Shown: positions 3,290 through 45,795 of the stretch, piece after piece
Numbering within the stretch: the first letter of the stretch is position 1
How the letters are laid out: every line of letters starts with the position of its first letter
DNA from: an uncultured Clostridia bacterium
GTDB taxonomy: Bacteria; Bacillota; Clostridia; TANB77; CAG-465
NCBI GenBank assembly: GCA_944387375.1
Contig: CALXEQ010000003.1
Coordinates: forward strand, 69,942-133,941
DNA: 64,000 nt
Direction of reading: 5' to 3'
Notes under the pieces: generated by a model
What the model saw: only the letters and a program-made list of their open reading frames with translations
Told to the model about the DNA's origin: nothing
Database searches by the model: none
Position numbers and translations under genes: made by a program

Positions 3290-3324
3290 GTATTTTTCAA
3301 ACGATTTGCATTTTTTTGTCGAAA

Positions 3325-3351
3325 AAAGGCACTACTACTAAAGTAATGCCT
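3325..3351 (-). terminator. intrinsic terminator of the DUF975-like gene
   Basis: Hairpin aaggcactac/gtaatgcctt with one mismatch, followed on the minus strand by TTTTTTCGACAAAAAAA. Confidence 0.45.
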
Positions 3352-3358
3352 TATTTTA

Positions 3359-4225: not shown

Positions 4226-4243
4226 AAATATTAAATATAATTA

Positions 4244-4669: not shown

Positions 4670-4673
4670 TGTA

Positions 4674-5429: not shown

Positions 5430-5432
5430 TCC

Positions 5433-7496: not shown

Positions 7497-7510
7497 ATAC
7501 TACTTCCCTT

Positions 7511-18846: not shown

Positions 18847-18866
18847 ATATTAACCTCCAAATTATC

Positions 18867-18974
18867 TTAAGCTAATCTATTTCCATTTATTAATGCATAA
18901 GCTGTAGCAATTCCAACTGCTACAAGTATTATGATTATACACACAAGCATTATAATTTTACTTTTTTTGTCCAT
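18867..18974 (-). CDS. 35-aa single-TM micro-protein (MDKKSKIIMLVCIIIILVAVGIATAYALINGNRLA)
   Basis: Strong RBS AAGGAGG about 5 nt before ATG. One TM helix. Lies 20 nt upstream of the 617-aa gene. Below the 60-aa cutoff of the ORF track. Confidence 0.45.
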   Translation of the reverse strand: MDKKSKIIMLVCIIIILVAVGIATAYALINGNRLA

Positions 18975-19054
18975 ATTATCCTCCTTAAGCTACTGTATAT
19001 TTTACCATAACAAAAAACAAAAGTATAGCCAAAATGCTATACTTAAAATGTTAA

Positions 19055-19708: not shown

Positions 19709-19900
19709 TATATTCACCTCTACTTTAAGAATAGCACATTACTATAAATTTCTCAATATAATAATATAATTTAATCTAAATCTAAAATAACTGATGTTCC
19801 ATCTAATTTAAGTCCAGCAATATCTACATAACCAGAATAAAAAACTATAGCAGGCACAGCAATAATTAAAGCATATTCTAAAAAAATGCTTTTTTGTAAA

Positions 19901-19924
19901 GTTTTACGGTTGTAACCGTAAAAC
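19901..19924 (+). promoter_or_regulatory. perfect 9-bp inverted repeat (GTTTTACGG-TTGTAA-CCGTAAAAC) abutting the -35 of the AAA+ ATPase promoter
   Basis: Direct read. Ends 1 nt before the TTGATT -35 element. Confidence 0.35.
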
Positions 19925-19953
19925 TTGATTTTTATAAAATAATATTATATAAT
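19925..19953 (+). promoter_or_regulatory. near-consensus sigma-A promoter TTGATT-17-TATAAT
   Basis: ttgatt at 19925-19930, 17-nt spacer, tataat at 19948-19953. The RBS AGAGGTGG follows immediately. Confidence 0.5.
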
Positions 19954-19963
19954 ATTAGTAGAG

Positions 19964-21354: not shown

Positions 21355-24300
21355 CTATTTTGCAACTTCTACATCTAAGTTCATATGTTCTCCATTAATA
21401 TTTGTATCAGTATAGGTATCTCTTTTTCCATTATACTCAATATTTAAAGCTAAAGTTTCTCTTTTTATTTCATCAGCATATTTTTTAACAACTTCTTCTA
21501 ACATATCATTACCTGATACATAAAGATTTATTTTATCTAGTACTTCAAATCCTTTATCTTTTCTCATGTTTTGTACTTTAGATAGTATTTCTCTTAAATA
21601 TCCTTCTTCTTTAAGTTCTGGTGTAATAGTTGTATCTAATACTACACCTACTTCTCCCTCACCTGCAAATGCATATCCTTCTTTACCTTGCATAGTAATT
21701 AACAAATTATTTGAATCTAAAGCTATTTCTGTATCATCTACAAATATTGTTTCTACTTTTCCAGCCTTTACTTTATTTGCTAGATCCATTTGATTCATTT
21801 TAGCAAGCTCTTCTTTTATCTTTGGAATTAATCTTCCATATTCTTTTCCAAGTACTGGTAAATTTGGTTTTATTTCAAAATTTACATACTCAGACATATC
21901 TGCACCTAATACAACTTCTTTTACATTTAATTCATCTTTTACTATATTACCATAATACTCTGGTAAAGTATCTACAGATATTAGCATTTTAGATAAAGGT
22001 TGTCTATTTTTAATATTTTCAGAATTTCTTGCACTTCTTCCAAGTTTTACTATTTTATATGCTAAATCCATCTCTTTTTCAAGTTGTAAATCTATTTCTT
22101 TATCATTTACTTCTGGCCAATAACATAAATGTACACTTTCTGGAGCACTACTATCCAATCCATAAACTAGATTTTGATATATTTCATCTGTAATAAATGG
22201 TACAAATGGTGCTGCAACTTTTATTAGTGCTGTCAAGACTCTATATAAAGTAACATATGCACCTATTTTTTCATCTGTTAAATCTTGAGCCCAAAATCTT
22301 TCTCTATTTCTTCTTACATACCAGTTAGATAACTCATCTGTAAAGTCCTCAATTAAATAACCTGCACCAGTTATATCATATTTTTCTAATTTCTCATCAA
22401 CTGTTTTTACAAGTGTATTTAATTTAGAAATTATCCATCTATCCATAACATTTTCAGATTTAAAATCTTTATACTCTAATGGATTAAAATTATCTATCTG
22501 TGCATATAAAACATAGAATGAATATACATTCCATAAAGTACTTAAAAATCCTCTTTGACTTTCTTGTACGTTTTCAATAGATAATCTTGATGAAATCCAA
22601 GGAGCACTTCCTGTATAAAAATACCATCTTGTAGCATCTGCTCCAACTGTATTTAATAATACTAATGGATCTACACCATTTTTCTTAGATTTAGACATCT
22701 TCTGTCCTTTTCCATCTAAAACATGTCCAAGTACAATACAATTTTCAAAAGGTATTTTATTAAATAAAGCTGTACCTACTGCTGTTAACGTATAAAACCA
22801 TCCTCTTGTTTGATCTATAGCTTCAGAAATAAATTGTGCTGGGAAATTATTTTTAAACATTTCTTGATTTTCAAATGGATAATGCCACTGTGCAAAAGGC
22901 ATTGAGCCAGAATCAAACCAACAATCAATAACTTCTTTTGCTCTTTTCATTTTCTTTCCACATTTTGGACATTTTAAATATACATTATCTATATATGGTT
23001 TATGCAATTCTATATTTTCTGGAACATCTATTCCTTTTTCTTTTAGTTCTGCAATAGAGCCTATACATTCTCTATGTCCACAAGACTCATCTTCACAAGT
23101 CCAAATTGGAAGTGGTGTTCCCCAATATCTGTCCCTTGATATTCCCCAATCAATTACATTTTCTAAGAAATTACCAAATCTACCTTTTTTAATATTTTCA
23201 GGATACCAATTAACTTTATCGTTATTTTCAACTAAGTTATCTCTTAATTTACTCATCGCAACAAACCAACTTTCTTTTGGATAATACAAAAGTGGTGTAT
23301 CACATCTCCAACAATGTGGATATGAGTGAACATGTCTTTCCTTTGCAAACAATTTGTTTTCATCTTCTAACCATTTGCAAATATCTACATCACAATCTCT
23401 TACAAATCTGCCCTTCCAAGGTTTTACATCATCTACAAATTTTCCTTCTTTATCTACTAAATTAACAAAGGCTATTCCATTTTGCTTAGATACTAAACTA
23501 TCATCCTCACCATAAGCCGGAGCAATATGTACTATTCCTGTTCCATCACTAAGTGATACATAATCTCCATGAATTATTACAAAGGCTTTACCATCAACTT
23601 TAGCAAAAGGCATTAATTGCTCATATTCTTTTCCTAAAAGTTCACTTCCTTTATATACATTTAATACTTCATATTCTTTATCTTTTAAAACTATATCAAC
23701 TAAATCTTTTGCAAGTACATATACTTCATATTTATCTTCATCCACTTTTACCTTTACATCACAATAGTCATATGCTTTGTTTACACATAAAGCAAGATTT
23801 GAAGGTAGAGTCCATGGAGTTGTTGTCCATGCAAGTACATATTTATCTTCATTTTTTAATTTAAATTTTGCTATGCAAGTTAAATCTTTTACATCTTTAT
23901 ATCCTTGTGCTACTTCATGAGAAGATAGAGCTGTACCACATCTTGGACAATATGGCATAACTTTATGTCCCTCGTATAGAAGTCCTTTATTCCACATTTC
24001 CTTTAAAGCCCACCAAACAGACTCAATATATTCATTATAATATGTTACATATGGATGCTCCATATCTACCCAGTATCCAACTTTATTTGTCATTTCTTCC
24101 CATTCATGAACATATTTAAATACACTTTCTTTACATTCTTTTACAAATTTTTCTACTCCATATTCTTCTATTTGCTCTTTTCCAGAAATTCCTAACTTTT
24201 TCTCTATTTCAAGTTCAACAGGTAAACCATGTGTATCCCAACCAGCTTTTCTTATTACTTGATACCCTTTCATTACCTTATACCTAGGAATTATATCTTT

Positions 24301-24492
24301 CATAACTCTTGTTATGATATGACCAGCATGTGGCATACCATTTGCTGTTGGAGGCCCATCATAAAAAGTAAAATATCTTTTACCTTTATTCATATCAAAA
24401 TTCTTTTTTATAATATTTTTCTCTTTCCAGACTTCAGCCATTTCATGTTCCATTCCAACAAAACCATTTTTTAGTTCAACTTTTTTATACAT
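21355..24492 (-). CDS. ileS: isoleucine--tRNA ligase IleS
   Basis: HIGH motif [17 protein letters not shown] motif. Length and overall similarity typical of type 2 IleS. Start ATG at 24492 with RBS GAAAGGAG. The track's TTG start at 24516 is rejected. Confidence 0.95.
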
Positions 24493-24750
24493 AAAAACTT
24501 CTCCTTTCTGATACAAGAATAAATAATTATAAAAAAACGCACATACCTGTATATAAGGAATGTACGATTATATCTAAAATATAATATATACAAAATAATA
24601 ACCACCTTAATATACAACATACCATCATATGTGCCCTTTATAACGTAAGGAATACGGCTCAGCTTACTATTAATTCAGCCTGCAACTCAGAGGTGATTTT
24701 CATATAAAACTAATCTAAATGAGCTCACACCATCCTCATCTCGCTTGATA
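24493..24750 (-). promoter_or_regulatory. candidate T-box riboswitch leader of ileS (Ile specifier AUC)
   Basis: A leader of about 250 nt containing a terminator and a partial T-box-like UUAAGGUGGU segment. It has GAAAAUCA (AUC + purine) in a possible specifier loop and AGUAAGCUGAGCC resembling stem I distal elements. Firmicute ileS genes are normally T-box controlled. The ACCGCG part of the T-box consensus was not found. Confidence 0.35.
24531..24566 (-). terminator. intrinsic terminator inside the ileS leader (attenuator)
   Basis: Minus-strand RNA CGUACAU-loop-AUGUGCG (7 bp, one G-U pair) followed by UUUUUUU, about 40 nt upstream of the ileS RBS. Confidence 0.45.
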
Positions 24751-25027
24751 TTTCATTTTATATTACTCTTCCTCGTCATAGTTTTTGTTAATTATTATTT
24801 ATTCTATCTTTTTAACTTCTATCATTATACCATATCCAAACTTTCTTGTAAAGTACTAATTTTAGCATTTGCAATTATTTATGTTTCAATTATATTTTTA
24901 AACAATTTCATAAATATTACGTTTTTATCTTTTTCGACTTTTTTAAACAAAAACTATTGCAAAGTGAAAAATCGTGTGGTATATTATAGTCATCATCTAT
25001 TTTAATACCTTTCATTTTAGATTGGTT

Positions 25028-25048
25028 CCCACTAGTTTTACTAGTGGG
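25028..25048 (+). terminator. hairpin CCCACTAGT-ttt-ACTAGTGGG
   Basis: 9-bp perfect inverted repeat. The downstream plus-strand sequence is moderately T-rich. Confidence 0.3.
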
Positions 25049-25077
25049 ACTTAATTTTAAAAATTCTCATTAAAAAA

Positions 25078-25100
25078 TTACTAGTCAATTTGACTAGTAA
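25078..25100. terminator. bidirectional intrinsic terminator TTACTAGTCA-att-TGACTAGTAA
   Basis: 10-bp perfect inverted repeat flanked by T-runs on both strands. Lies directly after the stop of the 25107-26132 gene. Confidence 0.5.
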
Positions 25101-25106
25101 TTTTTA

Positions 25107-26132
25107 TTATTCTATAATCATATTTGCATTATATTTTACATCTTCATTTAGTCTAGTTGCTGCAGCTTTATTTTCGCCAGGTTTTAATATATCTAATGGT
25201 TTAGTAACCACTTTATATTTCTTTCCATCTTTTTCAAGCTCGAATACACTTATGCTATTTTCTAAAGTTTCTTCTAAATGTCTTAATTCAGTTGTAAAAT
25301 ACATTTCTTCATCTTTTAAAAACATTCCAACTTTTTTAATAATTCTAAACATTTCTGCAATATGTTGTATATCTTCCCCAACAAATACAACTTGTGGCTT
25401 TTCTGCAAAACCAGCATCATTTTTTACAAAATTTTCGTAAAAATCTGAATATAATTGTACTTTCTCTGCAAACATATTTTGCCAATCATCATTTCTTCTT
25501 ACTACTTCAAATACAAAATCTACTTCTTTATTATCTTGTTTTAATGTAACCATTCCACCTGTTGGTTTAAATTTTACATTATATTTTTTTGAATATAGTA
25601 GTATATTAGGATTTGCTCTTACAAATGCTCCTACTTTTTGCATATATGCAATTATTACCTGATTTCCTGCAAGTTTTCTTTTTACAGCAAAAGCAGGCTT
25701 TGTATTTTCTGTAGGTTGCCATGTTGTTGGAATATTTCTTTGCTTTAATATATATGTAGCTATTTTGTCTATGCAATATGCTCTATATGAGCTTTTTCCA
25801 GTTTCACTTTGGAAAAAATATCTTGCAATAACTTTAGACTTTGTTAAATCTTCTAACCATTTTGCTACTTTAGTTTGTCTTTTTTCAACTTCGATATCAT
25901 TTAATTTGCCTCTAAGTTCAAGTACTTGTGTTACTTGTCTTGATGTAACATAACCAAACTCATTGACAACTTCTAGGGCATCAATATGAGATTCATTAAT
26001 ATATCCCATATCCATTTTAAAAACTACTTGATTTATTGATGCAAAGCCCTCTTTACCATCATATACTTTTTTCTCATCTTGCCTTACAGCAAAAGGAGAT
26101 ATAGCAGTTTTTACTTCTTTATCATTTACCAT
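25107..26132 (-). CDS. hypothetical protein (341 aa), last gene of the T4SS-like block. Possibly a replication/relaxation-type mobile-element protein.
   Basis: Strong RBS AAGGAGAGA. Has its own upstream 200-nt intergenic region. No HUH or Walker motifs found. The function call is speculative. Confidence 0.55.
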   Translation of the reverse strand: MVNDKEVKTAISPFAVRQDEKKVYDGKEGFASINQVVFKMDMGYINESHIDALEVVNEFGYVTSRQVTQVLELRGKLNDIEVEKRQTKVAKWLEDLTKSKVIARYFFQSETGKSSYRAYCIDKIATYILKQRNIPTTWQPTENTKPAFAVKRKLAGNQVIIAYMQKVGAFVRANPNILLYSKKYNVKFKPTGGMVTLKQDNKEVDFVFEVVRRNDDWQNMFAEKVQLYSDFYENFVKNDAGFAEKPQVVFVGEDIQHIAEMFRIIKKVGMFLKDEEMYFTTELRHLEETLENSISVFELEKDGKKYKVVTKPLDILKPGENKAAATRLNEDVKYNANMIIE

Positions 26133-26300
26133 TTTTCATCTCTCCTTAAATTTAATTTTGAAATTTTTTGGCCAATCTAGTATAGTTTACTAGAGATAAT
26201 TAAATATCCATTCATATATAATTATCACTAGTATTATATCTCATATGTAAACTTAATGCAACATAATAGTATAATTTATTTAAAAATCATCTTTTTATTT

Positions 26301-26333
26301 CAAAAAAAATACAATCTAGAAAACCTAGACTGT
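26301..26333 (-). terminator. intrinsic terminator after the S1-domain gene
   Basis: Hairpin acaatctag/ctagactgt (one mismatch), then UUUUUUUUG on the minus strand. Confidence 0.4.
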
Positions 26334-26336
26334 ATC

Positions 26337-27158
26337 TTAACCTATAATAATTAATTTTACCTTTTTTCTTTCAAGATTAATTCTTCTAATACTAACTAAT
26401 ACATTTTGTCCATATTCAATTCCATTTACATGATCAGCTATTCCAAGTACATTAGGTGCTATTTCAACAAACACACCTGTTTTTATTGAATTACGGACAA
26501 TTCCTTCTACAATATCTCCTTCTTTAAATTTTTTTATATTATCATCAAATGTTCCTAAAAGCTCTTTACAAGAAAGTTCTATTCTACCTGTATCTCTATC
26601 ATACTTCTTTACAAGTACTTCTATTCTTTGCCCTATTTTAAACATATCTGAAGCATTGTTTAGCATTGTATCTGACATATCATGTATTTTTAAAATACCT
26701 GTTACGCCACCACCTACATCAACAAAAGCAGCATAGTCTTTAAGTCCTACAACAACACCTCTTAATTTCATACCTGGTTTTAAATACTTATACATCCATC
26801 TTCTTACCTTAAGCTCTAATATTCTCTTAGACATAATAAGCTCAAACCCATCTTCAGTTTTTATTATTTCTTTTATACACACAGGTATTACTTTTCCCTT
26901 TTTATTTAATATAAATTTTTCTTCAACTAATCCGTCATCTCCAACAACACTAGACGCCTCATCTCTTGGAATAATAGCTTTTATATCTTTTCCAACTTTT
27001 CCAACCATATTTAAGCTTTCATCAATATCCTCAATGTACATATCTAATACTTGCTGTGATTCTTTTATTTCTTGTAAAGTCTTTTCATTTAAAACAATTT
27101 TCTTATTATCTTTTTTACTTTTTTTAATATTTTTTGAATTCTTTTTATTATTTTCCAT
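26337..27158 (-). CDS. tandem S1 RNA-binding domain protein with Lys-rich N-terminus
   Basis: Two S1-like OB segments: GMKLRGVVVGLKDYAAFVDVGGGVTGILKIHDMSD... and EGDIVEGIVRNSIKTGVFVEIAPNVLGIADHVNG... Confidence 0.7.
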   Translation of the reverse strand: MENNKKNSKNIKKSKKDNKKIVLNEKTLQEIKESQQVLDMYIEDIDESLNMVGKVGKDIKAIIPRDEASSVVGDDGLVEEKFILNKKGKVIPVCIKEIIKTEDGFELIMSKRILELKVRRWMYKYLKPGMKLRGVVVGLKDYAAFVDVGGGVTGILKIHDMSDTMLNNASDMFKIGQRIEVLVKKYDRDTGRIELSCKELLGTFDDNIKKFKEGDIVEGIVRNSIKTGVFVEIAPNVLGIADHVNGIEYGQNVLVSIRRINLERKKVKLIIIG

Positions 27159-27313
27159 AGTTTTAGTAAATTATTACCTTTTCCCTCCTATCTTATTTAA
27201 ATAATCATATATCATTATTATATAATATTTACATTTTTTATGCAATATATAATTATAATGTTTAAGAAGGAAAAAATACAAGGTAATAAATTACCTTGTA
27301 TTTTTTACACCAT

Positions 27314-28249
27314 TTACTCCTCTATAATTTTATAAGTATATTCAATTACATTTTTTACATTTACTTGAATTTTTAAGTCACTTTTATCAAAATAAAAAGT
27401 ATATATATTTGTATCTGATTGAGCATCAAAAATACAATTGTCTGAATTTAATAAAAATATCTCATTTTTATTAGATTTTATAAATTCTTTAAAGTCATGT
27501 ATGTTTCTATATTTAGTCATTTTACAATTTAAATCTAATAATTCATATGCTCTCTCTTGATTATAATTAAAATCTTCTTTAATTTGATTTAAAATATCCT
27601 CTAAATAATCTTGAAATCTTGCATTATATGCTCCAAATATGTTATTAACTTGATTTTCTATTTTATCTGGAAATTGTATTTCTACTTTCTCATCCTCTTT
27701 TAATTCAAAAACACTTTTATCATCTATATATTCTGTTGGTAATAAATTAAAAGTTTTATTAATATCATCTTGTTTTACTATCATAGAAAAGTAATTATGC
27801 TCATTAGATTTTAAATTTCTTAGATTTCCTTTTACAAAATATATATACATATTATTATCTTTATTTCTTGCAACTAAAATATTCTCTATATTTAAGTCAA
27901 AATCATCTTTATAAGTCATTAATGGCAAAATATCATTAATAAGTATATTTTTACTTTCTAGATATTCTTTATCAATTAAATTATATACATTTTGTAAATA
28001 ATAATCTTTATCATCTTGTAAAGTACTAGAATTATAACTTGTAATGCTATAATAATACTTTAAAATGCATGATTTTAATATATAGTACTCTTCTATATTA
28101 TTAATCTTTTGCAATGAAATTTTCGTTTCTTCTGTATCAGCATACTCATCAGATTTTACTATATCATCGTTCTTATCAAAAAATGCAACGGTACTTACCA
28201 CAACAATAATTATAATAATTAATATTATAAAAATATAAAATCTCTTCAT
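27314..28249 (-). CDS. membrane-anchored protein, paralog A (T4SS block)
   Basis: N-terminal TM. Shared motifs with the next gene: YFVKGNLRN/YFVKGVIRN, ERAYELLD/DRAYEYLN, EFIKSNKNE/SFIDSNKNN. RBS AAAGGAGGAG. Confidence 0.6.
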   Translation of the reverse strand: MKRFYIFIILIIIIIVVVSTVAFFDKNDDIVKSDEYADTEETKISLQKINNIEEYYILKSCILKYYYSITSYNSSTLQDDKDYYLQNVYNLIDKEYLESKNILINDILPLMTYKDDFDLNIENILVARNKDNNMYIYFVKGNLRNLKSNEHNYFSMIVKQDDINKTFNLLPTEYIDDKSVFELKEDEKVEIQFPDKIENQVNNIFGAYNARFQDYLEDILNQIKEDFNYNQERAYELLDLNCKMTKYRNIHDFKEFIKSNKNEIFLLNSDNCIFDAQSDTNIYTFYFDKSDLKIQVNVKNVIEYTYKIIEE

Positions 28250-28399
28250 ATAATCTCCTCCTTTATTAAAATTTAGATTTATTATATTAATGTATTATAT
28301 ATTTTATCACAAAAAATTTATCTAGTCAATTATGTAAACATCATGCAAATAAAAAATGGAAGAATTTATATTCTTCCATTAATTAAATTTTATTATAAA

Positions 28400-29380
28400 C
28401 TATATTAAAGATATACTATAATTTAGCTCTGAATAATTATTGCAATATAAAGATATACAATATGTATCAGTTTGATCATAGCAATCCAAAATCATAACTC
28501 CATCTTCATATCTTATTTCATATGTTGAAAATAACATAAAGTACATATTATTTTTATTAGAATCTATAAAACTCTTAAACTCATCAATTGTTTTAAATTC
28601 ATTGGATTTTGCTTGTTCATTAAGATATTCATAAGCTCTATCAATATCATAAAGTAATATTGTTTTTACATTATCAAATCTATACTCAGCAATATCTTCA
28701 ATAGTAGTCGAACTAGAACTAAATTTATTATAGTCTCTATTTTCTACAGACTGTGGTATATCAAAATTTATTTCTTCACCTTCTTTTAAACCATTAAAAT
28801 CAACATCAGCTAAATAATCTCCTAAATACACTTCAAAAGAGCTAGTTGTATTATCTAAAGTTAAAATCATATTAAAGTCTATACCATCATATGTCTCTGT
28901 ATTTCTTATAACACCTTTAACAAAATATGCAGTAACTAATCCAAAATCCTCAGGATTTTCTTCATACTTACTCAAAGAATATACTTCATATAATTCAATC
29001 TTGAAATTCTCTATATATTCTATATTAGAAGTAACATTTTCTTGAGTAATTCCAAGCTTATTAATATAATCAGGTGATAATAAATTATATGTGACATCTC
29101 TATAAAAACTGTCTGTACTATTAGGAGAAGATATTCCATTATAATACAAATAAAATTTTTGTACACAGTTTTTTACTAAATTTAAAGTAGCATATCCTTC
29201 TATTTTTTGTAATTTATTGTTTTCAGAATTTATTATCTCAACATCTGCCTCTCTTAATTCAGTATCACTATAACTGTTATCATTTTCATTAATATTACTT
29301 ACAACTTTAAATATAATTATAATAACAATTATAAAAAGCAACAATATTATTCCAAATATAATTTTTTTATTTTTATACAT
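28400..29380 (-). CDS. membrane-anchored protein, paralog B (T4SS block)
   Basis: See paralog A. Start probably ATG at 29380 (MYKNKKIIFG). Confidence 0.55.
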   Translation of the reverse strand: MYKNKKIIFGIILLLFIIVIIIIFKVVSNINENDNSYSDTELREADVEIINSENNKLQKIEGYATLNLVKNCVQKFYLYYNGISSPNSTDSFYRDVTYNLLSPDYINKLGITQENVTSNIEYIENFKIELYEVYSLSKYEENPEDFGLVTAYFVKGVIRNTETYDGIDFNMILTLDNTTSSFEVYLGDYLADVDFNGLKEGEEINFDIPQSVENRDYNKFSSSSTTIEDIAEYRFDNVKTILLYDIDRAYEYLNEQAKSNEFKTIDEFKSFIDSNKNNMYFMLFSTYEIRYEDGVMILDCYDQTDTYCISLYCNNYSELNYSISLI

Positions 29381-29396
29381 AATATTCACCAACTTT

Positions 29397-40384: not shown

Positions 40385-41059
40385 TTAAATAAATGTTTTA
40401 TTAATTGCTGTAGAAATAAATGACAACACATTAAGAGTTGTGAAAATTAAAATAATACCTATTATATACATAGCACTTTTTTCTTTCAGTTTTGCTTTTA
40501 CTTCGGGACCAGAAAAAATATACTTTACTCCCATATAAACTGTAACTATAACTGCAATAAATTTGGCAGCTAATACTATTATACTAAAAACGCTTGCAAA
40601 AGCACTTTCAAGACTAGAGCCATTAAAAATAAATAGTTGTGTATTTCCAGAAACTCCTGAAACAGCTATATTACCTGTGTTTTGATCATAACTAATATTC
40701 CTGATAAGTAAACCTCTTATATTGGACCATCCAAAGAAAAATATACATGCCACCAATAAAGTAACAAGATTTTCTTTAACAGAAACTTTATCAGATACAC
40801 TTCCTAAAACATATTTTATACCCAAAACAACCGTAGCTATAGCAATAGCTCCTGTTCCTATAGTTTCTACAATATTAGCTATTTGACTAATAACACTAGA
40901 ATCAAAATAAATATCAGTACTTCCCTGGGAATACCATTGAGACGCTTCACTCCAAAAGTCATACGTACTATTATTTTGACTATCGCTAGCATATAAATTA
41001 TTTAAAAATATTGTCATCATAAAAATCATTCCTAATAAAATAATATTTTTCTTTTTCAT
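40385..41059 (-). CDS. tandem-duplicated VirB2/TrbC-like pilin protein
   Basis: Signal peptide plus two copies of the pilin module: IAIATVVLGIKYVLGSVSDKVSVKENLVTLLVACIFFFG and IAVIVTVYMGVKYIFSGPEVKAKLKEKSAMYIIGIILIFTTL. Start uncertain: ATG at 41059 or TTG at 41071. Confidence 0.5.
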   Translation of the reverse strand: MKKKNIILLGMIFMMTIFLNNLYASDSQNNSTYDFWSEASQWYSQGSTDIYFDSSVISQIANIVETIGTGAIAIATVVLGIKYVLGSVSDKVSVKENLVTLLVACIFFFGWSNIRGLLIRNISYDQNTGNIAVSGVSGNTQLFIFNGSSLESAFASVFSIIVLAAKFIAVIVTVYMGVKYIFSGPEVKAKLKEKSAMYIIGIILIFTTLNVLSFISTAINKTFI

Positions 41060-41199
41060 ATTAAACCACAACCCTATTTTTTATAAATAGTTACTCCTTT
41101 CTAGTATAAAATCAAATATTAAATATAGTATAACATATATTAAAGCTATATTAGTAAATTATATATATTTTTTTTATTTTTGTAATAATAGTGAAATAT

Positions 41200-41565
41200 T
41201 TATATACTTGTCATAACATTATTTGATATGTTAGTAATAAATCCTATTATTGTTGGAGCCGCAAATACTAAAATAGTTCCTACTATAAGCCATATTAAAG
41301 TTTCTTTTATCTTCGCTTTATCATTTGAAGCAGCATACATATACTTTACTCCTGTAAAAACAACTCCACAAACTGCCGCAACTTGTAGTACTAAAAGAAT
41401 TGTAGAACCTACACGTGACATTACACCATCTAAAGCTGTATTTCCCTCATTAGCAACATTACCATATAAATCTTCATTAAACCCATTTCCTAAAACAGCA
41501 AAAATATAAGTATTACATATACTAAACAATACTAAAGTTATTAAAAGAATCTTTTTAAATTTCAT
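41200..41565 (-). CDS. VirB2/TrbC-like pilin (prepilin with signal peptide)
   Basis: Signal peptide MKFKKILLITLVLFSICNTYIFA, then two hydrophobic helices separated by KYMYAASNDKAKIKETL. RBS AAGAGGTAG. Confidence 0.55.
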   Translation of the reverse strand: MKFKKILLITLVLFSICNTYIFAVLGNGFNEDLYGNVANEGNTALDGVMSRVGSTILLVLQVAAVCGVVFTGVKYMYAASNDKAKIKETLIWLIVGTILVFAAPTIIGFITNISNNVMTSI

Positions 41566-41740
41566 TTTTCTACCTCTTTTCTATATTCTTATTTATATTA
41601 TACTATATATTATTTTTTTAATCAATTAAAATATTAGTAATATTATGAATTTATAAGCAAAAAATGAACCTCTGAAAAATATCAAAGGTTCATTTTTAAT
41701 TAAGTGCACTTAGTATTATTTAACATATTTATAATCTTAA

Positions 41741-42094
41741 TTATTGTATAACACTATTACCAGCATCAATAATAAATTGAACAACTGTACTTGCTGCGAA
41801 TACTAATATGGCACCTACAACAAGACCAATCATACCATTTTTAATTTCTGCTTTACCATCAGCACTAGCAAACATATACTTAACACCAGCAAATACTATA
41901 GCTGCAATTGCACATATTTGAAGAACTGTAAGAACTGTGCTCCATACGCTTGATACAGCAGTATTAACATTTCCAATTCCTTGACCACTACCCATATTTT
42001 GAATTTCCTCAGGAGTTCGTGCTAACACTGGACAAGTAACAATTACTAATGCTACAAGAACGATTGGCATAACTCTTAACATAAATTTTTTCAT
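41741..42094 (-). CDS. VirB2/TrbC-like pilin (prepilin with signal peptide)
   Basis: Paralog of the 41200 gene (VFAGVKYMFASADGKAEIKNGMIGLVVGAILVFAAS). Start ATG at 42094 with RBS AAAGGAGGGTG. Confidence 0.55.
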   Translation of the reverse strand: MKKFMLRVMPIVLVALVIVTCPVLARTPEEIQNMGSGQGIGNVNTAVSSVWSTVLTVLQICAIAAIVFAGVKYMFASADGKAEIKNGMIGLVVGAILVFAASTVVQFIIDAGNSVIQ

Positions 42095-42126
42095 TATAAA
42101 CACCCTCCTTTGTTTACTCTATTATA

Positions 42127-42155
42127 ATTATACCAAATTTTGGATTAATAATCAA
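42127..42155 (-). promoter_or_regulatory. consensus-like sigma-A promoter TTGATT-17-TATAAT driving the T4SS-like operon
   Basis: Minus strand reads TTGATTattaatccaaaatttggTATAAT(TATAAT). The -10 element is duplicated. About 25 nt upstream of the first pilin gene. Confidence 0.5.
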
Positions 42156-42272
42156 TAGTTTTAATATTTTTTGCCTCTTTAAATGCGAATTTTTATAGAG
42201 TTTTGCTATATTTCTACCCAAATTTTTAGTATATTTTTCTTTACTTTTTTTAATTTACATATATACTATGTA

Positions 42273-42788
42273 ATGGTGATTCTTTTGAAAAAATTTTATT
42301 TTATTTATATTATTGTAATTATACTATATTTTTATTCATTTTCAAACAAAAATTCTGAAAAAAATTTACAAAATAATAATGTTTCTTTTATATATCCTAC
42401 CGAATATACTTCTCTTTCTTCTGAATATGGTAATAGATATTTATATGGATATCAAAACTTTCATGACGGAATAGATTTCTTAGCACCTCAAAATAGTTTA
42501 GTATATGCAAGCTGCGATGGATATGTAATATATTCTTCTTTTTTAGAAACCGGTTATGGAAATACTGTTATTATTTCTCATTCAAATAACTTAAGAACTT
42601 TATACTGTCATTTATCTGAAAATTTTATTGTTAAACCTGGTCAATATGTTAAGCAAGGGGAAATAATAGGATATGTTGGACCAAGATTTTTATCAAATGG
42701 AATACAAAATGGAAATACTACTGGTCCTCACCTTCATTTTTCTATATATAAGGATAATTTCAGCATAAATCCATTAAATTTATTATAA
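42273..42788 (+). CDS. M23 (LytM) family metallo-endopeptidase, membrane-anchored
   Basis: HxxxD motif (HDGIDF), GYGNTVIISH, HLHF motif. N-terminal hydrophobic anchor. Start ATG at 42273. Confidence 0.75.
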   Translation: MVILLKKFYFIYIIVIILYFYSFSNKNSEKNLQNNNVSFIYPTEYTSLSSEYGNRYLYGYQNFHDGIDFLAPQNSLVYASCDGYVIYSSFLETGYGNTVIISHSNNLRTLYCHLSENFIVKPGQYVKQGEIIGYVGPRFLSNGIQNGNTTGPHLHFSIYKDNFSINPLNLL

Positions 42789-42858: not shown

Positions 42859-43002
42859 CGTGTCAATTTTAGATTAAAAATTGACGTTATCATACATATC
42901 TTAATCATTTATAAATGATTAATTCTTTTTTACTCTGGGAATTTATTCCTGGAGTTTTTTATAAAATAAAAATATCAGGATATTTCTTCCTGATATTTTT
43001 AT
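42859..43002 (+). ncRNA. candidate small RNA (~145 nt) between the M23 peptidase and SSB genes
   Basis: Bounded by the consensus promoter upstream and a hairpin plus T-run terminator (42974-42994). Contains three further inverted repeats (42862-42885, ~42901-42922, ~42945-42960). No RBS-preceded ORF. Confidence 0.3.
42974..42994. terminator. bidirectional intrinsic terminator between the convergent M23/sRNA and SSB genes
   Basis: ATCAGGA-tatttct-TCCTGAT hairpin with T-runs on both strands. The ssb stop is at 42999-43001. Confidence 0.5.
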
Positions 43003-43622
43003 TTTTCTACTTTAGCAAATTTTGATACAGAAACTTCATATGCTACTTTCTTTTCAACTTCCCCATTTTCTAATTTTTTTTCATAAGCTCTTGATTGTAT
43101 TCTACCACTTAATTTTACCAAACTACCTACTTTTAAAGTATCACAAAATTTTGCATTTCTTCCCCATAATATACATGGTATATAATCTGATTTTTTATAC
43201 GTTCTATTAACTGCTATTAAAACATCTGCTATTTCTCTTCCTAAAGGAGTTTTTCTATATACAGGTTCTTTACAAATATATCCTATCAAATTTGCATTAT
43301 TTAATGTAACTATTGTATTGTCCTCTAAAAATTCTATTTCTTTTACAAAAACAGATAACACAAGTTTATTTTTCTTTTCTCCTTGCATATTGTATGATCT
43401 AAATTGACCATTAATCTTTACTATTTTATCTACCTGAATTTTATTTATATCAACTAATCTTTCTGATATTATAACAGGTAATATATCCTCATAATTACTT
43501 AGTCTTTTACTTTTTATTGAAAACTTATAAAATTTTTCTTCGAATATTTCATGACTAAATTCAGGTTCACTAATAATTACCCCACCTATAGCTACATTGT
43601 TATTTTCCATATAATTTTCCAC
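42999..43622 (-). CDS. single-stranded DNA-binding protein with two tandem OB folds and no acidic C-terminal tail
   Basis: Domain 2 matches SSB (LIAVNRTY, ILWGRNAKF, GSLVKLSGRIQSRAYE). Domain 1 is a degenerate copy. It ends ...KFAKVEK without the D-D-D-I-P-F type tail. Confidence 0.7.
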   Translation of the reverse strand: MENYMENNNVAIGGVIISEPEFSHEIFEEKFYKFSIKSKRLSNYEDILPVIISERLVDINKIQVDKIVKINGQFRSYNMQGEKKNKLVLSVFVKEIEFLEDNTIVTLNNANLIGYICKEPVYRKTPLGREIADVLIAVNRTYKKSDYIPCILWGRNAKFCDTLKVGSLVKLSGRIQSRAYEKKLENGEVEKKVAYEVSVSKFAKVEK

Positions 43623-43756: not shown

Positions 43757-44482
43757 TTAGATTTTATAGAACATAAAACCTATAATCATAAATAAAATAT
43801 ACTGTACAGGATAAAAATAATAAAATAACTTTTTATTTGAAAATCCTTTTTTACCATTATATAAATATATAGGTATAATTGCAAATAAACTATACTTCAT
43901 TATACTTTCTCCAAACAATATTAAAAATAATACACAACTACTAAATACCAATGCTTTCTTATATTTAATTTTATCATATAAAAACAAAATAGTTATAAAG
44001 AATGGAATTATAAATCCATATTCTATATCTAAAATTATATATAAAGAAAACAAAATTAAAATTAGCAATATATTTATAAATATCTTTTTCACATTATTAG
44101 TTTTTATTATATTATCTAATATAACTAAATAAAGTAAAGAAATTGAAAAAGAAAATAATATATTAGGCTCTCTATAAAAGTTTATACCATAGGTATTATC
44201 TATTAAATTAATTATTGTACCTACAATTATTACTAAAACTTGAGTGATAATTGCAAATTTTAATACTCTAATGATATATTGCTTTAAATCTTTTGTATGT
44301 TTATACCCCTGATAAATTAAAAATGCAAATAAAGGCATCGATATTCTTCCTATACTTCTTAATATATCATATTCATTATTTTCCAAAGCATAGTAGAAAA
44401 AATATCCAATATGATCAATTATCATAGTTATTATAGCTATTATTCTTATATCAAAGGACGAAAAAATTTTTAACGATTTCAT
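43757..44482 (-). CDS. TraX family polytopic membrane protein (putative acyl/acetyltransferase)
   Basis: N-terminal IIAIITMIIDHIGYFFY, the DHIG motif typical of TraX-family proteins. About 8 TM helices. Start codon lies 3 nt after the pgi stop. Confidence 0.6.
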   Translation of the reverse strand: MKSLKIFSSFDIRIIAIITMIIDHIGYFFYYALENNEYDILRSIGRISMPLFAFLIYQGYKHTKDLKQYIIRVLKFAIITQVLVIIVGTIINLIDNTYGINFYREPNILFSFSISLLYLVILDNIIKTNNVKKIFINILLILILFSLYIILDIEYGFIIPFFITILFLYDKIKYKKALVFSSCVLFLILFGESIMKYSLFAIIPIYLYNGKKGFSNKKLFYYFYPVQYILFMIIGFMFYKI

Positions 44483-44484: not shown

Positions 44485-45795
44485 TTATTCCTTACTTTTT
44501 AATAATCCAAGCATATTTTTCTTATATGCTTCAACACCTGGTTGATCAAATGGATTTACACCAAGTAAATATCCACTTATTGCACAAGCTTTTTCAAAAA
44601 AGTATATTAATTGACCTATATTATACTCTGTAAGATCCTCTAAATTAATTACCATTGTAGGAACCTTTCCATCAACATGAGCTTTTAGAGTTCCTTTAAA
44701 AGCTTGCTTATTTATATAGTCTATTTCTTTTCCTGCTAAATAATTTAAATTATCAAAATTATCTTCTAATTCTGGCAAATAAGTTAAGCTTCTATCTACC
44801 TGAACATTTATAACAGTTTCAAAAATATTTCTTTTTCCGTCTTGTATCCATTGTCCCATAGAATGCAGATCTGTAGTAAAGTTTACACCTGCAGGGAAAA
44901 TTCCTTTTCCATCTTTTCCTTCACTTTCGCCAAATAATTGTTTATACCATTCAATAAAATATTGAAAACTTGGCTCATAGCTTGCAAGTAATTCTATATC
45001 TTTTCCAGATTCTCTTAAAATATTTCTATATGCTGCATATTTATAACAGTCATTATTTGACACATCTTTATTGTTAAATACAAATGATGCAAATTGTGCT
45101 CCATCAAGTACATCTTCAAAGTTAATATTTGCAACTGCCATTGGAAGAAGTCCTACTGCTGTAAGCACAGAATATCTTCCTCCAACATCTTTTGGTATCT
45201 TAAACATTTCATATTCATTTTTTATTGCCAAATCATGTAAAATACCTTTTTCAGGATCTGTTGTAACATATATTCTAGATGCTGCCATAACCTCACCATA
45301 CTTTTGCTCTAATACTACTTTTAAAGTCCTAAAAGTTACTGCAGGCTCTAATGTTGAACCAGACTTAGATATAACATTAATGGCAAAATCCTTATCTTCA
45401 AGATACTCAACTAAATTTCTTAAATATTTACCACTTAAATTATTTCCTGCAAAAATAATTTGTGGATGTTTTCTTTCAGAATAAGTTTGTAAATTAGAAA
45501 ATGTTGAATCAAACAAATCTATAATAGCCTTTGCTCCAAGATAAGAACCACCAATTCCAATAACCACAAAAACATCAGCTTGTTTATTTATTCTTTTTGC
45601 ACATTTTTTTATTTTTTCTATTTCTTCTTCATCTCTATTTGCTGGCAAATCAATCCAGCCTAACATATCGCTACCTTTACCAGATTTATTTTCTAACATA
45701 TCATGTGCCTGTTCTACTCTTTTGCACATTCCTTCATATTCTTCATCTGTTATAAAAGGTTTTATACCGTCATCTTCTAAAAATATACCTTGCAT
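44485..45795 (-). CDS. pgi: glucose-6-phosphate isomerase
   Basis: Firmicute-type PGI: VVIGIGGSYLGAKA, GGRYSVLTAVGLLP, and the GESEGK motif region. Confidence 0.9.
   Translation of the reverse strand: MQGIFLEDDGIKPFITDEEYEGMCKRVEQAHDMLENKSGKGSDMLGWIDLPANRDEEEIEKIKKCAKRINKQADVFVVIGIGGSYLGAKAIIDLFDSTFSNLQTYSERKHPQIIFAGNNLSGKYLRNLVEYLEDKDFAINVISKSGSTLEPAVTFRTLKVVLEQKYGEVMAASRIYVTTDPEKGILHDLAIKNEYEMFKIPKDVGGRYSVLTAVGLLPMAVANINFEDVLDGAQFASFVFNNKDVSNNDCYKYAAYRNILRESGKDIELLASYEPSFQYFIEWYKQLFGESEGKDGKGIFPAGVNFTTDLHSMGQWIQDGKRNIFETVINVQVDRSLTYLPELEDNFDNLNYLAGKEIDYINKQAFKGTLKAHVDGKVPTMVINLEDLTEYNIGQLIYFFEKACAISGYLLGVNPFDQPGVEAYKKNMLGLLKSKE

Follow-up and report, generated by a model that had tools for sequence, protein, structure and literature searches.

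According to our analysis, the 64,000-nt stretch of DNA studied here (the window) carries, at 25107-42103 on its minus strand, a block of type IV secretion system (T4SS) genes. We read this block, with better than even confidence, as the mating-pair-formation part of a system that a large clade of low-GC uncultured Clostridia from gut metagenomes has in its core genome and that serves most likely for contact-dependent DNA donation. Judged by comparison of homologous loci, the block is best read as vertically inherited and functional, neither a remnant nor a recently integrated conjugative element (ICE). What this explanation says of the substrate, probably DNA, is its weakest point. At least 80 uncultured clostridial species retain the locus; the 80 species loci to which the counts below refer (VirB4 65-95% identical) were drawn from at least 377 tblastn-confirmed stretches.

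Gene content and organisation of the block

The block consists of 15 ORFs (Table 1), which leave no space for further genes, and the 17 genes counted in the first-pass annotation have to be corrected accordingly. Its minus-strand orientation and the abutment of TAA and ATG at 39975-39980 (gap 0) were described correctly there; the VirB4 and VirB6-like genes do overlap, by 14 nt counted from the first ATG and not by 12. The promoter-like sequence TTGATT-17-TG-TATAAT ahead of pilin 1 is also present, sites of such kind being found in the AT-rich DNA of the window at chance level (157 against 153.5 expected). A single promoter for all genes but the last, as was assumed, did not hold: because a hairpin with a T-run stands behind the first pilin gene and a second promoter-like site (TTGATT-17-TATAAT) ahead of the second, the block is, as far as such signals tell, more than one simple transcription unit, and a terminator-like hairpin also lies between the genes for the 342-aa and 311-aa proteins.

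Table 1. Features of the T4SS locus and its surroundings in the window
Feature	Position	Strand	Evidence or remark
VirB2/TrbC-type pilin 1, 120 aa	41741..42103	-	signal peptide, two hydrophobic helices; Pfam TrbC 7e-08 (33.0 bits > 27.9), T4SS_pilin 9e-06
Pilin 2, 121 aa	41200..41565	-	Pfam T4SS_pilin 3e-09 (37.2 > 26.6), TrbC 4e-06
Pilin 3, 228 aa, tandem double-pilin protein	40385..41071	-	Pfam TrbC (residues 59-118), T4SS_pilin (residues 156-218)
PrgI/VirB3-like small membrane protein, 129 aa	39978..40367	-	Pfam PrgI 4e-08 (34.1 > 27)
TrsD-like protein, 478 aa	38541..39977	-	BLASTP to N-terminus of long VirB4 proteins
VirB4-family ATPase, 664 aa, short form without N-domain	36516..38510	-	Pfam P-loop_TraG 7e-17, also DUF87, AAA_10; NCBIfam; motifs
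VirB6-like polytopic membrane protein, 501 aa	35024..36529	-	directly after VirB4; five predicted TM helices
Gly/Ala-rich membrane protein, 352 aa	33954..35012	-	tblastn to plasmid relatives
Two bitopic membrane-anchored proteins, 187 aa and 278 aa	32498..33910	-	
VirB1-type cell-wall hydrolase, 1031 aa	29397..32492	-	Pfam Phage_lysozyme 8.5e-06, CHAP 1.5e-07, both over cut-offs
Two tandem paralogous bitopic surface proteins, 342 aa and 311 aa	27314..29428	-	tblastn cross-hits; common 55-nt segment D4
S1-domain (OB-fold) nucleic-acid-binding protein, 273 aa	26337..27158	-	Pfam S1 2.8e-16
Winged-helix + restriction-endonuclease-like protein, 341 aa, cytoplasmic	25107..26132	-	remote Replic_Relax (MOBC-type) relative
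M23 peptidase	42183..42788	+	Pfam Peptidase_M23 2e-28
VirD4-type type IV coupling protein (T4CP), 833 aa	59577..62078	+	Pfam TraG-D_C 3e-11, T4SS-DNA_transf 4e-10, TrwB_AAD_bind
Promoter-like site of pilin 1	42155..42127		
Second promoter-like site	41625..41597		
Hairpin + T-run	about 41700-41660		
Terminator-like hairpin	28380..28355		
Strong hairpin terminator after 341-aa gene	25105..25073		
T-box leader of ileS	24788..24627		80 bits, under gathering score 93; E 3e-17
pgi	44485-45795		
tRNA-Lys	46547		

Most of the membership proposed earlier (VirB4, VirB3, the lysozyme and CHAP hydrolase, the pilins) is supported by Pfam, while the VirB6/TrbL-like assignment follows from position and topology, its sequence matches being weak and below cut-offs (T4SS_pilin, E 0.0011; the MMCAP2_0566 conjugal-transfer family, E 7e-4). 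All three pilins pass a Pfam cut-off and their genes have a 61-nt paralogous segment in common (repeat family D1); pilin 2 also matches an Mbov_0395 pilin-like NCBIfam model (2.6e-06, under its cut-off). In VirB4 the Walker A GKSGSGKS and Walker B VLVDEAW motifs are found as first reported, and the protein scores 217.8 bits with NCBIfam conju_CD1110 (below 325), 189.8 bits with VirB4_plasma and, weakly and far under the cut-off, 5.9e-08 with a CedD-like model; its clade makes one 50%-identity cluster, the next full-length relatives being at most 40% identical.

The TrsD-like protein, which has an N-terminal TM anchor, a domain like the VirB4 N-extension and a long charged tail, gave no match in Pfam, NCBIfam, PHROGs or PDB sequences. 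By BLASTP against the N-termini of long VirB4 relatives (E 8e-11 for an 822-aa one, P0382, and 1e-05 for P0508), its domain is homologous to their N-terminal extension and can be called a 'split VirB4 N-domain'. The 352-aa protein corresponds to part of a single 864-896-aa protein encoded behind VirB4 on plasmid relatives (tblastn matches within 17268-19958 of L087 and 13074-15668 of L088), and the 187-aa and 278-aa proteins may be VirB8/PrgL-like (NTF2-like) scaffold proteins.

The hydrolase, described from the start as membrane-anchored, possesses one TM anchor (residues 75-93), a long spacer and then the lysozyme and CHAP domains, with AQCPWW and GHVAYVE present; among relatives its enzymatic module is swapped for M23, NlpC/P60 with glucosaminidase and M23, GDSL with Phage_lysozyme2, or C39. 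The M23 peptidase gene, divergent from the pilin promoter region and found at the same place and in the same direction in about 35 species loci, may encode an accessory cell-wall enzyme of the T4SS.

Coupling protein and candidate DNA-processing cassette

The lack of a coupling protein, claimed in the first-pass annotation, is true of the block alone. Elsewhere in the window, at a distance of 17.5 kb and among the core genes pth, rplU and rpmA, lies the gene of a VirD4-type T4CP; this protein has TM helices at its N-terminus, the Walker A motif GATGTGKT and an acidic tail at its C-terminus. Its homologues are 64-83% identical across many Clostridia MAGs, the order obg-tRNA synthetase-RNase J-like-rpmA-rplU-pth, followed by the T4CP gene, is unchanged in relatives at 64% and 72% identity, and in the 80 loci the T4CP is never less than 10 kb from VirB4. 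Comparison of these sequences has shown the T4CP to be fixed at its own chromosomal site and conserved in the lineage.

The absence of a relaxase holds likewise for canonical families only: a scan of the block genes and 20 flanking ORFs found none of these and no integrase, and the last gene of the block is a remote relative of Replic_Relax. All 17 orthologues match this family, the window copy below threshold (14.8 against 25.3 bits in Pfam), and fold matches are to REase and winged-helix proteins. PF13814 is known as the MOBC relaxase superfamily and is linked to VirD4 coupling proteins (PMC5357655). Aligned by hhalign with a bona fide MOBC protein, the TraX-like protein of pTEF1, the 341-aa protein reaches 1.5% probability over the winged helix only; an alignment read by eye shows no conservation, within the family, of the acidic residues canonical for PD-(D/E)XK enzymes (plasmid copies have Ser for E209, and Thr stands at the 'PD' position); the AF2 model is of low confidence (pLDDT 53), and no oriT was identified. 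The S1 gene is the first and the 341-aa gene the second of a conserved two-gene cassette, found in the same arrangement in two chromosomal relatives (L084, L085) and three plasmid lineages, and joined to the block although the outer flank varies. We suggest this cassette as the best candidate for a DNA-processing module and the 341-aa protein as a candidate DNA-processing protein or, by a weak assignment, relaxase; it could alternatively be a transcriptional regulator.

The same cassette is carried by plasmids of C. beijerinckii and C. botulinum, together with a T4CP (34-35% identical to that of the window), a TrsD-like homologue (E 1e-24 to 4e-26) and, at 40-42% identity, the plasmid VirB4 closest to that of the window; for Thermoanaerobacterium plasmids only the cassette and a 31.7%-identical VirB4 have been shown. 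On large plasmids the set is adjoined by DNA-metabolism genes (DUF3854, Rad52-like, recombinases), and MOB-suite-type tools call these plasmid relatives non-mobilizable.

Inheritance of the locus

Core genes flank the block on both sides within the window (to the left the dcw cluster with ileS, to the right pgi, obg, a tRNA synthetase, rplU/rpmA and pth), and the ileS leader, pgi and, further on, tRNA-Lys stand where they had been placed. The window also contains Spore_YtfJ, and SpoIIIA genes are present in relatives; genomes of the clade are small, one complete relative (L054) having 1.8 Mb. Relatives differ in the left flank and do not keep the block beside ileS, while pgi-ssb-M23 on one side and S1-341 as the inner end are held across species with PGI down to 62% identity, and about 38 species retain the order in full, pgi-(traX)-ssb-M23-pilins-B3-TrsD-B4-B6-...-hydrolase-S1-341. 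The PrgI/VirB3-like and TrsD-like genes were found in 80 of 80 loci, the VirB6-like gene in 76-77, pilin 1 in 71-74 and the 352-aa gene in 34-45. Identities of VirB4 and PGI to the window covary over 18 species (Pearson 0.80; Spearman 0.61, p 0.007), and that of the TrsD-like protein tracks VirB4 (Spearman 0.91).

In the closest species compared (L001) those ORFs of the block that it covers are all intact, with lengths conserved. The dN/dS values, approximate as dS is near saturation (0.5-1.1), show purifying selection, with the cytoplasmic and membrane core as slow as pgi and surface-exposed proteins fast: VirB4 has 0.03 (same as PGI), the PrgI/VirB3-like protein 0.07, the TrsD-like and VirB6-like proteins 0.13 each, the pilins 0.2-0.3, the 352-aa protein 0.26, and the 342-aa and 311-aa surface proteins, the fastest in the block, 0.68 and 0.58.

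The first-pass annotation had offered a decayed ICE remnant and a chromosomally fixed T4SS side by side, and the comparison across species decides for the latter. A decaying remnant that lost integrase, relaxase and T4CP would agree with the scan for integrases and canonical relaxases, and MOB-suite-type tools would label the block non-mobilizable, as they do its plasmid relatives; it is contradicted by 15 of 15 intact ORFs, by the VirB4 dN/dS, by the order conserved in at least 80 species and by a T4CP present and conserved, and we hold it for highly improbable. Nothing positive speaks for a recently integrated ICE with integrase and relaxase beyond the window, to which we give hardly any chance: the insertion context is one and the same across diverged species, VirB4 and PGI identities are correlated, base composition is uniform with no GC break at the block, a search for direct repeats at its borders found none, and the outer flanks are core genes.

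Possible function of the system

We propose that the cell wall would be opened by the hydrolase, that VirB3, TrsD, VirB4 and VirB6 would form the membrane translocon, and that the pilins would assemble into a filament or conduit outside the cell; the S1 and 341-aa pair would bind and process DNA at a chromosomal site and the T4CP would hand it to the channel. With these predicted roles contact-dependent DNA donation is therefore the most likely function. The suggestion that the T4SS was put to another use stands as to its chromosomal fixation; since a T4CP is in the window and the S1-341 pair accompanies this type of VirB4 on plasmids, the gene content does not call for a non-DNA use.

The closest analogue of the block is the chromosomal T4SS of Patescibacteria, with which it has in common pilin arrays, TrsD, PrgI, VirB4, VirB6, downstream hydrolases, a distant T4CP and no canonical relaxase (PMC12102498); those systems are thought to be non-conjugative, and their T4CP proved non-essential (PMC12102498). 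It would be logical to suggest, as a possible but clearly less probable explanation, that the same fixed T4SS was exapted for protein or effector secretion or for pilus-mediated attachment and cell interaction, with the 341-aa winged-helix protein as a regulator and the S1 protein acting post-transcriptionally. The shared architecture and the non-DNA role already proposed for Patescibacteria, the small genomes, the very fast evolution of surface proteins, expected for recognition of a partner or host, and the unconserved nuclease residues of the 341-aa family agree with it; against it are the conserved T4CP with its acidic tail at a fixed site, the plasmid sets beside DNA-metabolism genes, which point to DNA handling, the block itself, where no candidate effector genes were recognised, and the sporulation genes, which do not indicate an obligate epibiotic lifestyle. 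Improbable, in our view, is a competence-type system importing DNA, like Helicobacter ComB or archaeal Ced: the locus is chromosomal, lineage-conserved and without canonical relaxase, a ComEA-like gene (SLBB + HHH_3) adjoins it in the distant relative L054, and the CedD-like VirB4 match might be cited, but that adjacency is seen in one locus only, and the nearest mobile relatives, which are carried on plasmids, come with T4CPs. ComB-type uptake systems, to our knowledge, require neither a T4CP nor pilin arrays.

The outcome of the DNA donation we favour would be a chromosomally encoded, conjugation-like transfer from cell to cell within the lineage. As far as we know, recent reviews hold pilin genes to be absent from Gram-positive systems, with the exception of one other bacterial phylum, and a group of gut Clostridia that bears a complete-looking T4SS with pilin genes on its inherited chromosome, and not on a mobile element, contrasts with this rule.

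Gene content of the T4SS block

The minus-strand block at 25107-42103 holds 15 ORFs of at least 100 aa and has room for none beyond them, whereas 17 genes behind a single promoter had been counted in the first-pass annotation. It shows no compositional break against its surroundings (GC of the window is about 27%). The genes are tightly packed between 29397 and 41071, where intergenic gaps run from -32 to +43 nt, the TAA/ATG abutment at 39975-39980 is borne out and the VirB4/VirB6 overlap is present, measuring 14 nt and not 12; wider gaps, of 128-204 nt, surround pilin genes 1 and 2 as well as the three genes that close the block. The promoter proposed for the whole block does exist as a site, but promoter-like sites occur at chance frequency (157 found against 153.5 expected) and terminator and promoter pairs are found internally: pilin gene 1 is followed by a hairpin with a T-run and then by a second similar promoter, and another terminator-like hairpin is present in the last part of the block. 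The 15 genes are therefore arranged as several nested transcription units, and the first of these appears to resemble a typical highly expressed major-pilin gene.

Features in and around the block, with dN/dS of the window against L001, the locus of the nearest species (values are approximate because dS is near saturation)
Feature	Position	Strand	Evidence or description	dN/dS
Region left of ileS	16993-21172
ileS	21355-24788	-	MupA/MupB-like type-2 class (NCBIfam)
T-box leader of ileS	24788..24627		80 bits, E 3e-17, below the Rfam gathering score of 93
Two strong hairpins	25027-25105		ACTAGT cores
341-aa cytoplasmic protein	25107-26132	-	Replic_Relax, sub-threshold
A/T palindrome-like motif	26133-26175		immediately 5' of the 341-aa start
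S1-domain protein	26337-27158	-	Pfam
Terminator-like hairpin	28380..28355
311-aa and 342-aa proteins	27314-29428	-	tandem paralogues	about 0.6-0.7
Bitopic surface proteins				0.37-0.68
VirB1-type hydrolase, 1031 aa, TM-anchored	29397-32492	-	Pfam Phage_lysozyme and CHAP, above cut-offs	0.31
VirB6-like protein				0.13
VirB4-family ATPase	36516-38510	-	Pfam P-loop_TraG 7e-17, DUF87 and AAA_10, above cut-offs	0.03
TrsD-like protein, 478 aa				0.13
PrgI/VirB3 small membrane protein	39978-40367	-	Pfam PrgI, 34.1 bits against a cut-off of 27	0.07
Three TrbC/VirB2 and T4SS_pilin paralogues	40385-42103	-	each above a Pfam cut-off, TrbC or T4SS_pilin	0.2-0.3
Pilin 3	40385-41071	-	tandem double pilin
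M23 peptidase	42183-42788	+	divergent from the pilin promoter region
Two-OB-fold SSB	42999-43622	-	NCBIfam PRK05813 equivalog, 294 bits
TraX-family protein	43757-44482	-	family of the F-pilin acetylase
PGI, for comparison				0.03
VirD4-type T4CP, 833 aa	59577-62078	+	TraG-D_C, T4SS-DNA_transf and TrwB_AAD_bind, above cut-offs

The VirB4-like ATPase, the VirB3-like protein, the VirB2/TrbC-like pilins and the membrane-anchored lysozyme and CHAP hydrolase, all named at first from the sequence alone, are supported by Pfam; the Walker motifs GKSGSGKS and VLVDEAW are present in VirB4, and the hydrolase has its TM anchor, both domains and the motifs first quoted for it. PrgI/VirB3 is present in 80 of the 80 related loci that were compared, and pilins of L054, a distant relative on a complete chromosome, likewise exceed the Pfam cut-off for TrbC or T4SS_pilin. 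A 630-aa protein with several pilin-like repeats is encoded in the chromosomal relative L084 (13487-15379), away from its T4SS block. The VirB6/TrbL-like protein is a candidate by its position after VirB4 and its five predicted TM helices; its sequence matches are all sub-threshold.

Between PrgI and VirB4 lies a 478-aa protein that matches, over its residues of about 70-290, the N-terminal extension found in VirB4 relatives of 820-870 aa (E 8e-11 and 1e-05). We regard it as a TrsD-like 'split VirB4 N-domain' encoded beside virB4, as in the pGO1-type subclass; a separate protein of this kind fits the short VirB4 of the block (664 aa), whose alignment to the CD1110 model does not begin before position 164. 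Single-sequence searches of Pfam, NCBIfam, PHROGs and PDB sequences at default thresholds returned nothing for this protein or for the 341-aa protein at the end of the block, and a PDB profile search gave only noise.

The enzymatic module of the hydrolase is swapped among relatives (L084 6400-8679; L085, another chromosomal relative, 2126-7780; L054 17398-21393; the plasmid relative L087 15214-17259), the other versions being M23, NlpC/P60 with glucosaminidase and M23, GDSL with Phage_lysozyme2, and a C39 peptidase on plasmids. For the bitopic proteins of 187, 278, 311 and 342 aa, NTF2/VirB8-like folds are only hinted at. The 311-aa and 342-aa paralogues are the fastest-evolving in the block, with 33-39% identity to the species whose VirB4 is 95% identical.

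The divergent M23 peptidase gene keeps its position and orientation in about 35 species and therefore may encode an accessory wall-remodelling enzyme of the T4SS. A TraX-family gene, between pgi and ssb and 1.6 kb from the pilins, has counterparts of 31-46% identity in many relatives and is absent from the three closest ones (L001, L002, L005); with presence so variable, we left it out of the system. The SSB gene flanks the locus in about 25 species and was also left out, its product being an NCBIfam equivalog of a common clostridial SSB and perhaps a plain housekeeping paralogue.

The coupling protein noted at first as missing is absent from the block, but the window does encode a VirD4-type T4CP, which has N-terminal TM helices, an acidic tail and the Walker A motif GATGTGKT. 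It stands alone among core genes (pth, rplU, rpmA, RNase J-like, class-I tRNA synthetase, obg). Its homologues are 64-83% identical in many Clostridia MAGs, the context of obg, tRNA synthetase, RNase J-like, rpmA, rplU and pth next to the T4CP gene recurs at 64% and 72% identity, and in none of the 80 species loci does a T4CP gene lie within 10 kb of virB4.

Conservation of the locus on the chromosome

A scan of one genome per species gave at least 377 stretches with a relative, the best 80 of which were compared. All of these 80 come from uncultured Clostridia MAGs of human, rabbit, ruminant, chicken and mouse guts, with VirB4 identity of 65-95%; among them are Clostridium sp. CAG:465 and a single complete chromosome, of 1.8 Mb. 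Every one of the 80 has retained the core pilins-PrgI-TrsD-VirB4-(VirB6). According to tblastn of the window proteins, the full order, pgi-(traX)-ssb-M23(divergent)-pilins-PrgI-TrsD-VirB4-VirB6 followed by 352-187-278-hydrolase-342/311-S1-341, where 352 stands for a Gly/Ala-rich membrane protein, persists in about 38 species (VirB4 identity 72-95%). Identity to the window of VirB4 is correlated with that of PGI over 18 species (Pearson 0.80, Spearman 0.61, p 0.007). All block ORFs covered by L001, which ends short of the S1 and 341-aa genes, are intact and of similar length.

The block had been viewed as either a decayed or domesticated ICE remnant or a chromosomally fixed T4SS, with a recently integrated, repeat-bounded ICE as a possibility that comparative genomics could reveal. 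A remnant in decay is what a T4SS block with no canonical relaxase might suggest, and we reject it, since the ORFs are intact and conserved in length, their order is conserved and VirB4 has the same approximate dN/dS as PGI. A recent ICE is rejected as well: the direct-repeat search across the block borders (24.0-44.0 kb) gave only low-complexity imperfect or paralogous matches and no att-like repeats, the order is kept together with the pgi/ssb flank, and the tRNA-Lys gene is 4.4 kb from the block, beyond pgi. The absence of an integrase also held, as no integrase or recombinase domain is found in the 15 block genes and 20 flanking ORFs, the flanking ORFs scanned being those at 9.6-24.5, 42.2-57.3 and 59.6-62.1 kb. 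Order, selection and the VirB4/PGI correlation favour the remaining alternative, and, judging from sequence, we consider the locus to be a real and functional T4SS, vertically inherited, chromosomally fixed, pilin-bearing and served by an unlinked T4CP.

The interval from ileS to pgi proved to be conserved on one side only, the pgi/ssb side in about 38 species, while ileS is not a constant neighbour. Relatives at 72% and 80% identity also have hydrolase-S1-341 at the end of the block, but different genes come next, either an SBP_bac_5/rubrerythrin region or a gap-pgk-tpi-pgm-eno operon. As the S1-341 pair stays constant while the flank changes, it is part of the T4SS block and not of the flank. 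In L054 the whole locus occupies a different housekeeping context (LytR, D-Ala-D-Ala carboxypeptidase, ComEA-like gene) and has a different hydrolase.

The T-box leader noted at first in front of ileS is real, its score standing below the Rfam gathering score, and it precedes a synthetase gene that nevertheless belongs to the MupA/MupB-like type-2 class. To the left of ileS there are two ORFs without family match, of 617 aa and 220 aa, the latter with a weak Rz-like spanin match, as well as a plus-strand AAA_14/DUF4143 ATPase gene, at the same place as a local reversal of GC skew.

The S1-341 cassette, its plasmid relatives and the relaxase question

The S1-domain gene and the gene of the 341-aa wHTH/REase-like protein close the block. 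Orthologues of the 341-aa protein are 72-93% identical, PF13814 (Replic_Relax) being precomputed for some of them, and the domain is matched in 17 of 17 aligned orthologues (best E 5.7e-06); the protein of the window itself scores E 0.03 and 14.8 bits, below the cut-off of 25.3. PF13814, a family that combines an HTH with PD-(D/E)XK (PMC3424549), is the domain used by CONJscan for the superfamily of MOBC relaxases, which occur together with VirD4 coupling proteins (PMC5357655). Thus, the reported absence of a relaxase stands for canonical relaxase domains in the block, and the 341-aa protein is a sub-threshold PF13814/MOBC candidate; no further relaxase domain is found in the 15 block genes and the 20 flanking ORFs scanned.

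The MOBC relaxases, TraX of pAD1/pTEF1 and MobC of CloDF13, share with the 341-aa protein an N-terminal winged helix and a REase-like domain, and they typically go with VirD4-type coupling proteins (PMC5357655, PMC3424549), a VirD4-type T4CP being encoded here too. There are also differences: besides the score below the Pfam threshold, the 341-aa protein is always paired with an S1-domain protein, a pairing not described for MOBC systems, the profile comparison is insignificant beyond the winged helix and the catalytic acidic residues are not conserved. As MOBC reference we took the 'replication-relaxation family protein' (TraX-like) encoded beside the T4CP on pTEF1, which is typed MOBC, and not CloDF13, whose record NC_002119.1 is without an intact annotated mobC; hhalign of the 341-aa family against this protein gave a probability of 1.5%, covering the winged helix only and not significant. 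By our reading of the alignment with plasmid homologues, the acidic residues of PD-(D/E)XK are not kept: the plasmid homologues have Ser in place of E209, and the 'PD' position is Thr. What is conserved family-wide is a TSRQ recognition helix, W138, N157, K187, R212 and, at 252-257, a G-E-x3-H motif. Accordingly, it could be a nuclease of a non-canonical kind, a factor that gives specificity to DNA binding, or a regulator.

Two strong hairpins with ACTAGT cores (AAAAATTACTAGTCAAATTGACTAGTAATTTTT and TCCCACTAGT..ACTAGTGGGA) directly follow the 341-aa gene and could be terminators or a protein-binding or oriT-like site; relatives have one unrelated hairpin at this position. Structured leaders are seen upstream of the gene, and neither these nor the hairpins point to a nic site. 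The motif AAATTTcAAAATTAAATTTAAGGAG, immediately in front of its start, is kept in several species (equivalents in L023, L033, L034, L038, L084 and L085, with species-specific hairpins before each copy) and may serve as an operator or in the control of translation.

Among 72,556 plasmids searched by tblastn, only nine carry a homologue of the 341-aa protein: C. beijerinckii p1 (NZ_CP107023.1), six C. botulinum plasmids of about 140 kb, represented by p12/29 (NZ_KT897275.1), and two Thermoanaerobacterium plasmids of 110 kb, represented by pMU3262 (NC_017998.1). Seven of the nine are also the top seven of 847 plasmid VirB4 matches (41.6% and 39.9% identity), and VirB4 of the two Thermoanaerobacterium plasmids (31.7%) ranks about 13-14 of the 847. 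On all three plasmid lineages an S1-domain gene directly precedes the 341-aa homologue, the cassette having 24-25% identity. The two Clostridium plasmid types also encode a homologous T4CP (34-35%) and a TrsD-like protein (26%), and their gene order is like that of the block: small proteins, a PrgI-sized protein (about 105 aa), TrsD-like, VirB4, a large VirB6-like protein and a C39 hydrolase. Unlike the block, the plasmid sets have VirB6 and the 352-aa protein fused as one gene, a hydrolase of the C39 type, and integrases and recombinases nearby; none of the small ORFs that precede the PrgI-like gene on the plasmids matches a pilin HMM, and no VirB2-type pilins are recognisable there. From this shared gene content it follows that the chromosomal system is a fixed relative of a transfer-type set carried on plasmids.

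MOB-suite types all nine plasmids as non-mobilizable, that is, with no known relaxase. The S1 and 341-aa pair is the only conserved candidate for the DNA-processing function of the plasmid-borne set, and we propose it as a novel putative cassette of this kind. L086 (C. beijerinckii p1) and L091 (C. botulinum p12/29) share a conserved run of DUF3854, two small genes, S1, the 341-like gene, an HTH regulator and a Rad52/Rad22-like gene, then an ATPase gene (AAA family on L091, hypothetical on L086) and a PAPS-reductase-family gene, which looks like a DNA-processing or 'leading region' module.

Relation to described systems and possible output

The nearest named VirB4 relatives, all of them from Firmicutes (Heliorestis, a Peptostreptococcaceae MAG and Clostridium plasmids), are 37-42% identical. 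The best NCBIfam matches of VirB4 are the MPF_FATA families conju_CD1110 (NF045971 equivalog, 217.8 bits against a cut-off of 325) and VirB4_plasma (Mycoplasma ICE, 189.8 against 590), both far below cut-offs, so that CD1110 is the best-scoring family and VirB4 falls outside its equivalog. In common with MPF_FATA systems (CTn2/CD1110, pGO1 trs, pCF10 prg, Mycoplasma ICE Mbov_0395/0397), the block has a PrgI family protein, a bifunctional lysozyme/CHAP hydrolase of VirB1 type and a TrsD-like split N-domain as in the pGO1 subclass, and its pilin-like proteins weakly match the Mycoplasma ICE Mbov_0395 family. It differs from them in being off mobile elements, in having no MOBP, MOBQ or MOBT relaxase and no PrgB-type surface adhesin, and in its clear VirB2/TrbC pilins.

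The closest described analogue is the chromosomal, relaxase-less T4SS of Patescibacteria/CPR, known from Saccharibacteria (Quinonero-Coronel et al. 2025, PMC12102498; reviewed in PMC12857230) and treated as unique (PMC12857230, PMC12102498). Both systems have a monoderm host and are chromosomal and lineage-wide, with an MPF_FATA-related VirB4, arrays of divergent VirB2-like pilin genes beside virB4, TrsD-like and PrgI genes upstream of it, VirB6 (here a VirB6-like candidate) and peptidoglycan hydrolases downstream, a T4CP encoded far off and no canonical relaxase; matched against the description in PMC12102498, the Patescibacteria-type gene repertoire is present here. The host is different, being a spore-former-type Clostridia lineage (Bacillota) and not CPR, and so are the presence of the S1 and wHTH/REase-like cassette and the strong conservation of the T4CP. 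According to the review of December 2025, Gram-positive T4SSs have neither VirB2 nor VirB5 except in Patescibacteria, whose T4SSs are called unique among monoderms in their pilus-making potential (PMC12857230); the Clostridia locus would therefore be a second case. Our search of the accessible literature found no published description of this Clostridia T4SS.

It would be logical to suggest the following way of action. The TM-anchored hydrolase, perhaps together with the divergent M23 peptidase, would open the cell wall; PrgI, the TrsD-like protein, VirB4 and the VirB6-like and 352-aa proteins would form the membrane translocon, with the bitopic proteins as scaffold and as surface or recognition components; the pilins would build an extracellular filament. 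The S1 and 341-aa pair would select and process a DNA substrate, which the unlinked T4CP would hand to the channel.

Contact-dependent DNA donation is thus the output we hold to be most likely. Its main rival is an exapted role not involving DNA, as has been proposed for Patescibacteria; by analogy, the likeness in architecture could speak for such a role also here, while the cassette and the strongly conserved T4CP speak against it. Uptake of DNA is a minor possibility. The surface components evolve very fast while the core stays frozen, a contrast suggestive of an arms race or of the recognition of partners.

We may even suggest, although as it stands the proposal is rather unlikely, that in this clade of small-genome gut Clostridia a conjugation machine of plasmid type has become an organelle of the core genome, where the pilus-bearing T4SS, the fixed T4CP and a hitherto unrecognised relaxosome, made up of the S1-domain protein and a degenerate wHTH/REase-like protein, routinely donate chromosomal DNA from cell to cell. 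If true, Bacillota would have a 'sex' system that is species-wide, and its T4SS would be the first in a Gram-positive, non-CPR lineage to bear VirB2 pili; the S1 and 341-aa cassette would then be the relaxase that is missing from a family of large Clostridium plasmids, which at present are typed as non-mobilizable.

With a Patescibacteria-like architecture fixed in a Bacillota lineage, in at least 80 and possibly several hundred species known from gut MAGs of animals and humans, there is now another and independent case in which one can ask what 'domesticated' T4SSs do. The S1 and wHTH/REase-like cassette is a testable candidate for a new DNA-processing module, and it could explain the mobility of those large Clostridium plasmids, C. 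botulinum ones included.
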